Assembly: GCA_002297365.1 (NCBI GenBank)
Contig: DBKT01000011.1
Location: 210,650 to 274,649, forward strand
DNA: 64,000 nucleotides
From: Bacillales bacterium UBA743
Lineage (GTDB): Bacteria; Bacillota_I; Bacilli_A; RFN20; CAG-826
Direction: 5' to 3'
Below, one piece after another: positions 22,359 through 23,863 of the stretch (its first letter is position 1; each line of letters begins with the position of its first letter). The translations under genes and the position numbers were made by a program. The notes under the pieces are model-generated. The model saw only the letters and a program-made list of their open reading frames with translations, ran no database searches and was not told the origin of the DNA.

Positions 22359-23501
22359 TTAAGAGACTTTATTTTTCTTCTTGCAAGATGAGTAAGAGAA
22401 ACCGGGAAAAAGCTTCCTTTGCTTAATAAAAAGTTTTTTTCTTTGATTTAAAGTCAGCGAAGAAATAGACATCTTATCGTCAGGATACTCTTCAAACCCC
22501 GAATCCTCCCATCCGCACACAGGGCATATCTCATGGCTGAGGGCGTCCGGGAAAGTGTGCTCCCCGCAGCATGGGCATTCATGAGGCTCCTTCTCCTCTA
22601 CTTGTGTCTGTATCTCTATCCCCTTTTCGCCTGTTTCGTTTCCTGTCTTTATTCTTCTCTTTTCACCTTTCTTTGGCTCATAGATAAAACTATCATTAAC
22701 TTGATAAAAAGAGACTACATAACCGTTCCGTGTCACAATGACGAGAGTTCCATCACGGACATCATATTTGTAGGTTTTTCCTTTCCAATCCGCCAAATTC
22801 TTCAAGTGTTTATGATCCGATGAGTTCGCAAAACGAACGGCGAAGGAAGCATAATCATCAGGACTAGGAGTGGAAAAATCCGATGCGTTCGCAAAGAATT
22901 GTTCTAGAAGATATCGCTTGTTAAAAGCCTTTGCCAATTTACGAAGATTGTTTTTCGCTTTTGTTTTTCCTTCATTCTCCTTAGGAGCTCTATTTTTTCT
23001 CCCTCTCGGCCTTCCTAAAGGCGAGAAACGGAATTTAGGATTTCGTTTTCTGTGCTCAGTGAACCATGACTTTCTTTCGTTTAGGCTCATACAAAAATAT
23101 GATATTCTCTCATCTGGCTCATCCTCAAACCCCGAATCCTCCCATCCGCACACAGGGCATATCTCATGGCTGAGGGCGTCCGGGAAAGTGTGCTCCCCGC
23201 AGCATGGGCATTCATGAGGCTCTTTCTTTTGGGGTTGCTCGTTATCATATTCCCATTTGGGATTGCCGCGCTTTTTTGCTTTATACCAGGCTTTGTACTC
23301 ATTTAAGGACATCACATTGGATTGCTTCTCTAAATTAGGATTCCGAAATTGTTCAAGGTCGTAAAACCAACCGCAACAGGTGCACTGCAAATCGTTCGGT
23401 GTTTTTCCGTCTTCTATTTCTTCTTCCGAAAGTTTTGTAAAATAAAACTTATGACAGACGGGGCAAAGCATGGGCTTCACCTGTTTTATTTTTTTATCCA
23501 T
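22359..23501 (-). CDS. Cysteine-rich CPCC-type zinc-ribbon repeat protein (three CPCC modules) with a central domain homologous to the adjacent 125-aa ORF
   Basis: Three modules of C-P-x-C...C-P/T-C-C-G-W...ED followed by SLNE(R/Y)K motifs. Two are identical at the protein and DNA level (98-bp perfect repeat). The central about 70 aa ([45 protein letters not shown]) aligns with the C-terminus of ORF 23486..23863. Confidence 0.5.
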   Translation of the reverse strand: [380 protein letters not shown]

Positions 23502-23863
23502 ACTGTTTTCTTCCCCCTTCCTTTTTTAGGAACATAAGTAAAATGATCTGCTATGCGGTAATAAGAAATCACATAGCCTTTTTTATCTATCAATGCTAAA
23601 ACGTGATTTACTATATCATATTTATAGGTCGTCCCATTGCAGTCGACAACGCTCTTAAAATGTTTTCGGTCAACTGTATTGGCAAAATGCACCGCCTTTG
23701 AAACATACTCTTCTGCTGTTGTTGCGCCAAACTCTTTTCCATGATCGTGAAAGTGCCTTTCTAAACCGCCTCGATTAAATCCTTTTGCCCAAGCAAAACG
23801 GATATGCTCTGTTCTTGAACCATTCGTATTTCCGTAGCGAAAGCTAGCTCCTTTAGTTGCCAT
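23486..23863 (-). CDS. Small hypothetical protein; possible BECR-fold (RelE/colicin-like) nuclease-toxin-like domain (inference only)
   Basis: 125 aa, basic. Conserved block FANTVDRKHFKSVVDCNGTTYKYDIVNHVLALIDKKGYVISYYRI shared with the neighbouring CPCC protein. Overlaps both neighbours (translational coupling). Confidence 0.4.
   Translation of the reverse strand: MATKGASFRYGNTNGSRTEHIRFAWAKGFNRGGLERHFHDHGKEFGATTAEEYVSKAVHFANTVDRKHFKSVVDCNGTTYKYDIVNHVLALIDKKGYVISYYRIADHFTYVPKKGRGKKTVWIKK

Follow-up and report, generated by a model that had tools for sequence, protein, structure and literature searches.

A probable free-standing CdiA-CT/CdiI(O32:H37)-type pair in a gut Bacilli genome, and a CPCC gene that contains a toxin-like domain

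Closest described systems

The closest described counterpart of the locus considered here is the toxin-immunity pair CdiA-CT/CdiI of Escherichia coli O32:H37, deposited as PDB 8EY4 under the title 'Contact-dependent growth inhibition toxin-immunity protein complex from E. coli O32:H37'. The depositors, in an abstract of 2025, describe the toxin as structurally homologous to the tRNase of colicin D and alike in its catalytic centre, and as a non-specific RNase that needs EF-Tu for its activity; the same abstract attributes to CdiI a unique fold in which Fe3+ is coordinated via cysteines, and reports that the toxin-immunity complex forms a stable ternary complex with EF-Tu (PMC12585627). We compare with this system two neighbouring open reading frames (ORFs), encoding proteins of 125 and 380 aa, in a 64,000-nucleotide stretch of DNA (hereafter the window) from Bacillales bacterium UBA743 (assembly GCA_002297365.1, contig DBKT01000011.1, positions 210,650 to 274,649). 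Because both ORFs match the two chains of one solved complex, and do so in the canonical toxin-immunity order, they are probably a toxin-immunity pair homologous to that of E. coli O32:H37; the 380-aa ORF would in addition be a collapsed array of two such pairs.

The likeness to the E. coli pair lies in the colicin-D-like toxin fold, the HxxxHGKEF motif, the four-cysteine immunity fold recognised by the Pfam model PF14206, and the position of the immunity gene directly downstream of the toxin gene. Unlike the toxin of the contact-dependent growth inhibition (CDI) system, for which alone RNase activity and EF-Tu dependence are reported in the depositors' abstract (PMC12585627), the 125-aa protein is free-standing and predicted to be cytoplasmic, with no CdiA filament, PT-VENN region or CdiB. 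Furthermore, two or three CPCC units are found here as against one 70-aa unit in E. coli, the host is a gut Firmicute known from a metagenome-assembled genome (MAG), and the pair is preceded by a DUF4417 gene and, in the window, by an XRE/ImmA gene pair. Colicin D and its immunity protein ImmD are comparable in the fold of the catalytic domain (Foldseek 0.98-1.00) and, as far as the structural model can suggest, in the logic of a toxin with a tightly bound inhibitor; they differ in that sequence similarity is not detectable, receptor and translocation domains are absent here, and the two immunity proteins are unrelated, ImmD being a tRNA mimic and not a CPCC ribbon. Orphan toxin-immunity arrays downstream of cdi or rhs genes likewise show tandem pairs, N-terminally truncated toxin copies and reshuffling by recombination between repeats, whereas in the present case there is no full-length delivery gene upstream and an orphan pair has been joined in frame to the immunity gene before it. 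Finally, the CapH/CapP (ImmR/ImmA-type) operons share with the locus a helix-turn-helix (HTH) repressor and an M78 HExxH protease directly upstream of a predicted toxic effector operon, but the effector cassette found here (DUF4417, RNase, CPCC) has no PADLOC model, and only a minority of the cassettes surveyed carry the regulatory pair.

The 125-aa protein and the CPCC modules

The 125-aa protein is a member of a protein family with at least 106 representatives, 70-144 aa long, in gut and rumen Firmicutes. A profile of this family, compared with the PDB, retrieved a single chain, 8ey4_A ('PT-VENN domain-containing protein', E 1.1e-3), with an alignment that covers the toxin domain from end to end. 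The AlphaFold2 (AF2) model of the protein (predicted local distance difference test score, pLDDT, 76) contains two helices followed by a β-sheet, with residues 1-18 disordered. Foldseek searches with this model placed 8ey4_A first (E 3.4e-4, root-mean-square deviation 1.4 A, template-modelling score TMt 0.76), the next matches being the colicin D tRNase structures 5znm, 1tfo, 1tfk and 1v74 (probability 0.98-1.00). The family is further characterized by a conserved HxxxHGKEF motif: in the 125-aa protein it reads HFHDHGKEF, with the histidines at positions 37 and 41, and aligns with GHWTKHGKEF of 8ey4_A. The HxxxH part is retained in all full-length members except that of locus L045, in which the second histidine is replaced by asparagine; this conservation suggests that H37 and H41 might have a catalytic role.

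The N-terminus of the family is a near-invariant peptide, M-[AS]-T-K-G-x-S-x-[RH]-Y-G-N, which is encoded by the first 18 codons of the gene (23810-23863), is modelled with pLDDT <50, and lacks a counterpart in the portion of 8ey4_A covered by the alignment. The 125-aa protein could not be assigned to a family by searches of Pfam (also at E-values up to 10), NCBIfam, PHROGs or PADLOC; the toxin chain of 8EY4 is likewise without a Pfam family. Pfam detected neither a PT-VENN junction nor regions for delivery, receptor binding or translocation, and the 118 toxin-only proteins retrieved are all between 70 and 144 aa in length. The protein is thus not a CdiA or a colicin, and the toxin domain alone is shared with them. 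By analogy with the E. coli protein it would be an RNase toxin that acts inside the cell producing it.

The 380-aa protein matched, among PDB sequences, the chains 8ey4_I and 8ey3_A ('Cys_rich_CPCC domain-containing protein') with an E-value of 1.1e-9, and each of its three CPCC modules independently recovers 8ey4_I in BLASTP searches (Table 1); conversely, the 8EY4 immunity chain scores PF14206 at 5.8e-22. The statement in the first-pass annotation of this DNA that CPCC domains are functionally uncharacterised is therefore outdated, as the CPCC fold is that of the CdiI immunity protein (PDB 8EY4/8EY3, PMC12585627). The CPCC gene lies directly downstream of the toxin gene with a 16-nt overlap, and the same order is observed in about 130 loci. 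Taken together with the solved complex, this arrangement suggests, by analogy, that the CPCC modules bind and block the 125-aa toxin. Literature searches on PF14206, Cys_rich_CPCC, CPCC together with CdiI, and 8EY4 returned no relevant work, and the other CPCC proteins that we inspected showed no fusion to known immunity domains, with only HD_4 and a weak DUF6508 match being encountered.

Architecture and alleles of the 380-aa ORF

PF14206 recognises the 380-aa ORF with 97.3 bits (cut-off 24.5; E 4.4e-28) in three stretches, the last of which is the best. All three modules contain two cysteine pairs (CxxC ... CxxCGW), situated at positions 13/16/40(42)/43 in module 1, 98/101/115/118 in module 2 and 309/312/326/329 in module 3, and are predicted to bind metal. 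Between modules 2 and 3 lies a domain whose nearest relative is the adjoining 125-aa protein, with 40% identity over 94 residues (aa 190-283, E 2e-25). In the alignment the two conserved histidines of the toxin, H37 and H41, are replaced in this central domain by glutamine and asparagine, and the lysine that follows by serine; the conserved N-terminal peptide of the toxin has also degenerated. As both family-conserved histidines have been substituted, the central copy is likely to be catalytically dead. Much of this had been anticipated by the first-pass annotation, which proposed a third, diverged CPCC module at the N-terminus (module 1 is indeed a long variant) and regarded the gene as a recombination product of a small protein and CPCC cassettes, a description that agrees with the architecture of modules and toxin paralogue seen here. 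The pairwise alignment and the CPCC model search that it suggested yielded the figures given above. It correctly recognised the homology with the neighbour, but missed that this neighbour is a colicin-D/CdiA-CT-type RNase domain, that the fused copy lacks the histidines, and that the two genes belong to a toxin-immunity cassette on an islet.

Comparison with other members of the family clarifies the origin of the individual segments. As a rule the toxin is partnered by a CPCC protein of either two modules (150-175 aa) or three (about 240 aa). The first ~168 residues of the 380-aa protein correspond to a complete two-module protein, in which module 1 is of the same type as the canonical first module, and the tail of module 2 resembles the natural C-terminus (KFRFVPLGRPKGSKNKKK, then stop) of the two-module homologue from locus L004. 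Module 3 is of the C-terminal type, follows a linker, and has a tail (MSISSLTLN...) similar to that of canonical proteins such as P0242. Residues 190-370 are collinear, including the linker, with P0114, a 214-aa single chain of toxin and CPCC domains that keeps both histidines and fills the toxin and immunity slot of the same cassette in another Bacilli MAG (L067:2018-2662). In near-identical strains of the latter (P0397, P0398) the chain is split into genes for 135-aa and 83-aa proteins, the linker differing around KGG(K/E)K. Among 402 retrieved proteins, the 380-aa and P0114 lineages are the only ones with a toxin and CPCC domain in one chain. Tandem arrays of three toxin-CPCC pairs are found in two loci (L006:804-3631 and L008:3545-6908), with one of the toxins in L008 being truncated. 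The units of the L006 array contain exact runs of 664 and 227 nt beside stretches of 55-80% identity, and in both arrays the divergence is concentrated in two places, the last CPCC module and the toxin's N-terminal half. Judging from these sequences, mosaics of exact tracts are a property of the toxin-CPCC family.

Such a tract is also present within the 380-aa gene. The two exact repeat copies (Table 1) are identical at 98/98 positions, cannot be extended by a single base at either end, are both in frame, and are nested in a longer repeat of 210 nt with 77% identity and a period of 633 bp. Immediately outside the tract the identity in register drops to 22/60 (37%) upstream and 60/112 (54%) downstream; at the identity of the flanks, the chance of a 98-base identical run is about 3e-32. 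An exact core with flanks that diverge at once indicates a sharp-edged conversion tract rather than a fresh duplication of the whole unit. On the evidence of the alignment, the 98 bp were thus copied by recent gene conversion between the zinc-ribbon cores of the already diverged modules 2 and 3. Both exact copies also occur in two independent ENA assemblies, L002 (ERZ808284) and L003 (ERZ27300195), whose contig names follow different assembler styles. Each differs from the window by two synonymous single-nucleotide polymorphisms (SNPs) within the 380-aa gene, with three SNPs over both, all of them synonymous. Recurrence of the two copies in independent assemblies with strain-level SNPs indicates that the repeat is not an assembly artefact. 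The perfect internal identity reported in the first-pass annotation hence holds to the base, and of the two origins it had offered, a very recent duplication or gene conversion, the diverged flanks favour the latter; copies differing on re-sequencing, which it had listed as a sign of artefact, were not seen in either of these assemblies.

The same annotation had suggested that the repeats provide a substrate for contraction, and a contracted form does exist. A 169-aa allele (P0386, HBE98650.1) is present in GCA_003501705.1, and a corresponding gene call of 159 aa (P0393) in run SRR29834401; both are composed of module 1, the shared core and the tail of module 3. The respective DNA (L073, L074) contains a single 98-mer and lacks exactly 633 bp, with flanks 99.7-99.9% identical to the window. 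By its sequence, this loss restores a canonical two-module CPCC protein of 169 aa, and homologous recombination between the 98-bp copies appears to have taken place in some wild strains. Both alleles are represented in public assemblies of the same species, about 20 contigs carrying the long form with an intact 380-aa ORF and 2 the short form. The 380-aa protein was found identical in independent assemblies, and the four variants observed in long alleles (I133M, Y196F, an RI insertion and G294E) all fall within the deletable segment, which suggests, as weak evidence, relaxed constraint on that segment.

Table 1. Positions in the window of the pair, its subdivisions, and the associated genes and repeats
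Feature	Position	Strand	Evidence or remark
Free-standing toxin-domain protein, 125 aa, colicin D / CdiA-CT(O32:H37) type	23486..23863	-	profile, fold, motif
Fusion ORF, 380 aa: two-module CPCC unit, histidine-less toxin-like domain, third CPCC module	22359..23501	-	PF14206, PDB matches
CPCC module 1, long variant with insert between the Cys pairs	23244..23471	-	~aa 11-86; BLASTP to CdiI O32:H37, E 2e-5
CPCC module 2	23022..23222	-	~aa 94-160; BLASTP to CdiI (8ey4_I), E 2e-12
Toxin-like central domain lacking both conserved histidines	22653..22988	-	~aa 172-283; paralogue of the 125-aa ORF
CPCC module 3	22389..22589	-	~aa 305-371; Pfam stretch 308-359; 8ey4_I alignment 307-361; BLASTP E 2e-13
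Exact repeat, copy A	23125..23222	-	aa 94-126
Exact repeat, copy B	22492..22589	-	aa 305-337
Segment absent from the 169-aa allele, 633 bp	22590..23222 (equivalently 22492-23124)	-	gap in alignment with L073, L074
DUF4417 protein, 229 aa, first gene of the cassette	23853..24542	-	PF14386 E 4e-22; start from gene call and homologue P0119
ImmA/IrrE-type M78 metallopeptidase, HExxH (HEICH)	24667..25284 (gene call starts 25269)	-	PF06114 E 7e-12; PADLOC capP E 9e-11
XRE-family HTH regulator, CapH/ImmR-like	25285..25617	-	HTH_3/HTH_26 E ~1e-14; PADLOC capH E 1.7e-16
Sigma-70-like promoter match, TTGACA-17 nt-TACAAT	25627..25655	-	11/12 to consensus; just upstream of the XRE gene
131-bp direct repeat, left copy (3' end of functional guaB)	21842..21972	+	127/131 to right copy; guaB PF00478 E 7.5e-155
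131-bp direct repeat, right copy (displaced guaB 3' fragment, far edge of islet)	25842..25972	+	127/131

Genomic setting and weighing of the alternatives

Contextual analysis placed the pair in a conserved and hitherto undescribed three-gene cassette, DUF4417-toxin-CPCC, of which about 140 loci from gut and rumen were encountered. The stop of the DUF4417 gene and the start of the toxin gene overlap by 11 nt in the window. The genome loci found via the toxin showed DUF4417 directly upstream and CPCC downstream, with the same overlaps, in 59 of 63 cases. In metagenomes, 80 loci were found via DUF4417; of the 73 in which the DNA extends far enough downstream, 71 continue with the toxin and CPCC genes, the two exceptions being degraded. 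The DUF4417 protein itself contains a largely invariant DxSxHxDMP motif, with D, S and D-M present in all members and the histidine replaced by tyrosine in one distant member, and its AF2 model is confident (pLDDT 87), with an enzyme-like α/β fold. Neither its sequence profile nor its model gave a convincing match in the PDB (no match for the former; best E 0.014 and TM <0.4 for the latter). Searches of BFVD with the model returned strong but unnamed matches, and then weak ones to queuine tRNA-ribosyltransferase-like proteins (probability 0.9-0.99, TM 0.4-0.5), so that a weak likeness to phage TGT/DpdA-type proteins can serve as a lead only. In the literature DUF4417 is mentioned in four papers, and none of these deals with its function. 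A more distantly related DUF4417 gene is followed, in certain Oscillospiraceae loci (L070:1452-3092, L072:1-1368), by an unrelated pair of genes for proteins of 146 aa and ~177-180 aa, neither of which has a Pfam or PDB match; this association suggests that the toxin-immunity pairs with which DUF4417 works are interchangeable. In the 146-aa protein the N-terminus is rich in Gly and Arg, and a motif D..CDLxIK...IEVKA may be PD-(D/E)xK-like; a Fic gene is located upstream in these loci.

Upstream of the cassette the window carries the XRE and ImmA genes, as do a minority of the loci surveyed. Models of PADLOC-DB 2.0 recognise neither DUF4417 nor the toxin, and the CPCC protein reaches E ~0.008 or weaker. 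CapH/CapP-type pairs have been described in one preprint as activating CBASS (antiphage signalling based on cyclic oligonucleotides) upon DNA damage (bioRxiv 10.1101/2022.04.27.489752) and in another as regulating many immune operons (bioRxiv 10.64898/2026.05.16.725639). By analogy, the XRE/ImmA pair might render expression of the cassette inducible by DNA damage or phage.

The 131-bp end of guaB, including its stop codon, is repeated exactly 4,000 bp apart, and between the two copies there are only five genes (XRE, ImmA, DUF4417, toxin and CPCC) and no integrase. On sequence these five genes look like a small islet of 4 kb, without an integrase, inserted in guaB at its 3' end. No empty guaB site turned up in the genome and metagenome scans, which were made for cassette context and were not aimed at empty sites. 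In other genomes the cassettes are flanked by direct repeats of 26-235 bp, several of which lie at or overlap the ends of unrelated genes. A palindrome, AAGGAT-N6-ATCCTT, brackets the cassette in many Clostridia-type loci (e.g. L037:875-914 and 2540-2578) and lies inside short direct repeats flanking the cassettes of L033, L035, L037, L050, L057, L060 and others. It is situated about 75 nt upstream of DUF4417 in 32/143 loci, about 45 nt past the CPCC stop in 54/143, and at both places in 25/143, against a background of 94 other sites in ~1 Mb, or about one per 10.7 kb, which corresponds to ~5-7 chance sites per position class. The palindrome could be a recombination or operator site; it does not occur in the islet of the window. 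The window contains no Rfam family and no tRNA gene, and accordingly neither an RNA antitoxin nor a tRNA attachment site was found in it. A prophage gene was considered and rejected: the toxin family has 0 matches in 50,697 phage records and 1 in IMG/VR, and the phage relatives of DUF4417, from Streptococcus and Mycobacterium phages, are only distant (~25% identity). As for the surroundings, the displaced guaB fragment underlies a pseudo-ORF at 25727-25972 (+). The islet and guaB lie between two further genes. One (19381-20676, +) encodes a protein of 431 aa in which two N-terminal zinc ribbons precede putative membrane-spanning hydrophobic stretches, and the other (26413-27513, +) a protein of 366 aa that carries a PPC (pre-peptidase C-terminal) domain; guaA is at 28088-29623 (-).

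The probable toxin-immunity reading can be cast as an evolutionary scheme that takes in the established homologies, architecture, loss of conserved histidines, linkage, conversion tract, deletion allele, regulators and islet boundaries. In this scheme the 125-aa protein would be a free-standing colicin-D-like RNase domain without a delivery domain, and each CPCC module a four-cysteine metal-binding domain of the CdiI(O32:H37) type that binds and blocks it. The starting point would have been a tandem toxin-immunity-toxin-immunity array, as is still intact in L006 and L008, which an internal deletion and the loss of a stop codon turned into a single reading frame. A two-module immunity protein (aa 1-~168), having lost its stop, would then read on into a second, inactive copy of the toxin (~aa 172-283), followed by the last CPCC module of the second immunity gene. 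Gene conversion would subsequently have homogenised 98 bp of modules 2 and 3, and recombination between these copies would drop 633 bp, such that the immunity gene toggles between long and short alleles via the 98-bp tract. The pair as a whole would form the distal part of the DUF4417-toxin-CPCC operon, which in the window has the XRE repressor and the ImmA-type protease upstream.

Several points weigh against this scheme. The homology of the toxin is weak at the sequence level (E ~1e-3) and leans on an AF2 model of moderate confidence, and the functional account of 8EY4 comes from a conference abstract (PMC12585627). Having no secretion or delivery domain, the toxin is not a CDI effector, and its role may be in addiction, abortive infection or some other process. 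The scheme does not account for the obligatory linkage to DUF4417 or for the invariant but disordered peptide (MxTKG..YGN) of the toxin, and, as the immunity gene is co-transcribed, it does not account for release of the toxin. Lastly, the single-copy allele in the UBA MAG (GCA_003501705.1) could be due to collapse by the assembler.

The last of these points can be extended to the reading that the exact repeat, or the difference between one and two copies, is altogether an artefact of assembly. Short-read assemblies can be broken or collapsed by an exact repeat of 98 bp, the protein P0387 stops exactly at the start of the repeat, as a contig broken there would, and the source of the 169-aa allele is a MAG in which the loop might have been collapsed. 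This reading is hardly credible given that the two-copy form was assembled separately in ERZ27300230, ERZ808284 and ERZ27300195, with strain-level SNPs, as well as in ERZ808240, and that the single-copy Logan contig of SRR29834401 runs across the repeat with ~600 nt on either side. Logan assemblies are based on k=31 unitigs and would halt at the repeat were the loop in the sample. We regard as unlikely, albeit less so, that the histidine-less central domain has a function of its own, for instance that of a decoy, of a scaffold on which the CPCC modules are pre-organised, or of a tether to EF-Tu or RNA, in which case the 380-aa form would be adaptive and not decaying. The predominance of the intact long form over the short one (~20 contigs vs 2), the purely synonymous SNPs of L002 and L003, the retention of toxin and CPCC in one chain by the second lineage (P0114), and the stable ternary complex that the depositors' abstract reports for the O32:H37 toxin, CdiI and EF-Tu (PMC12585627) would all fit such a function. 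However, the segment is dispensable in the single-copy allele, every one of the four protein variants lies inside it, and the domain has lost both the N-terminal peptide and the two histidines.

It is very improbable, in our estimate, that DUF4417 forms one enzyme or nucleic-acid-modifying complex with the 125-aa and CPCC proteins, the colicin-D-like one being a non-toxic subunit engaged in RNA binding or processing and the CPCC metal ribbon its partner. The nearly invariable linkage of the three genes with overlapping frames would be expected of such a complex, and the invariant toxin peptide without counterpart in 8ey4_A, together with the weak fold matches of DUF4417 to phage queuine tRNA-ribosyltransferase-like proteins, could be accommodated by it. 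Against this, the two smaller proteins have their homologues in a toxin-immunity complex of solved structure, toxin-CPCC pairs are duplicated without DUF4417 in L006 and L008, and DUF4417 also precedes an unrelated two-gene pair, the last two observations being typical of swappable toxin-immunity modules. The toxin-immunity reading is hence preferred. It can be widened to the tentative and, on balance, rather doubtful proposal that DUF4417-small toxin-immunity cassettes are widespread, undescribed mobile modules of gut and rumen Firmicutes, inducible by stress or phage and acting in suicide, addiction or defence, with DUF4417 as the trigger. Within such modules a captured CDI-type RNase/CPCC pair could be replaced elsewhere by the unrelated 146-aa/177-aa pair, DUF4417 could be a sensor or trigger that acts through the invariant N-terminal peptide of the toxin, and the cassettes could move as units between direct repeats or AAGGAT-N6-ATCCTT palindromes.

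What is new here, as far as sequence comparisons can tell, is most likely a free-standing gut-Firmicute cassette of the CdiA-CT/CdiI(O32:H37) type, in which a dead toxin and one more immunity module have been taken up into the immunity gene. This gives a likely role to a Pfam family so far labelled just 'cysteine-rich CPCC', and indicates that a pair known from one E. coli CDI system has a large free-standing family in Gram-positive gut bacteria. If the wider proposal on the cassettes were true, the 380-aa protein would be a natural immunity/dead-toxin/immunity chain that may reveal how the toxin is held and released, and the significance of the finding would grow if the DUF4417 cassette were a new inducible defence or addiction module. 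The two alleles of the immunity gene in one species, one with a disabled toxin copy and one that has lost it by recombination, constitute a natural experiment, through which it becomes testable how many CPCC modules are needed for protection, what the job of the dead toxin domain may be, and how such arrays expand, are homogenised and collapse.

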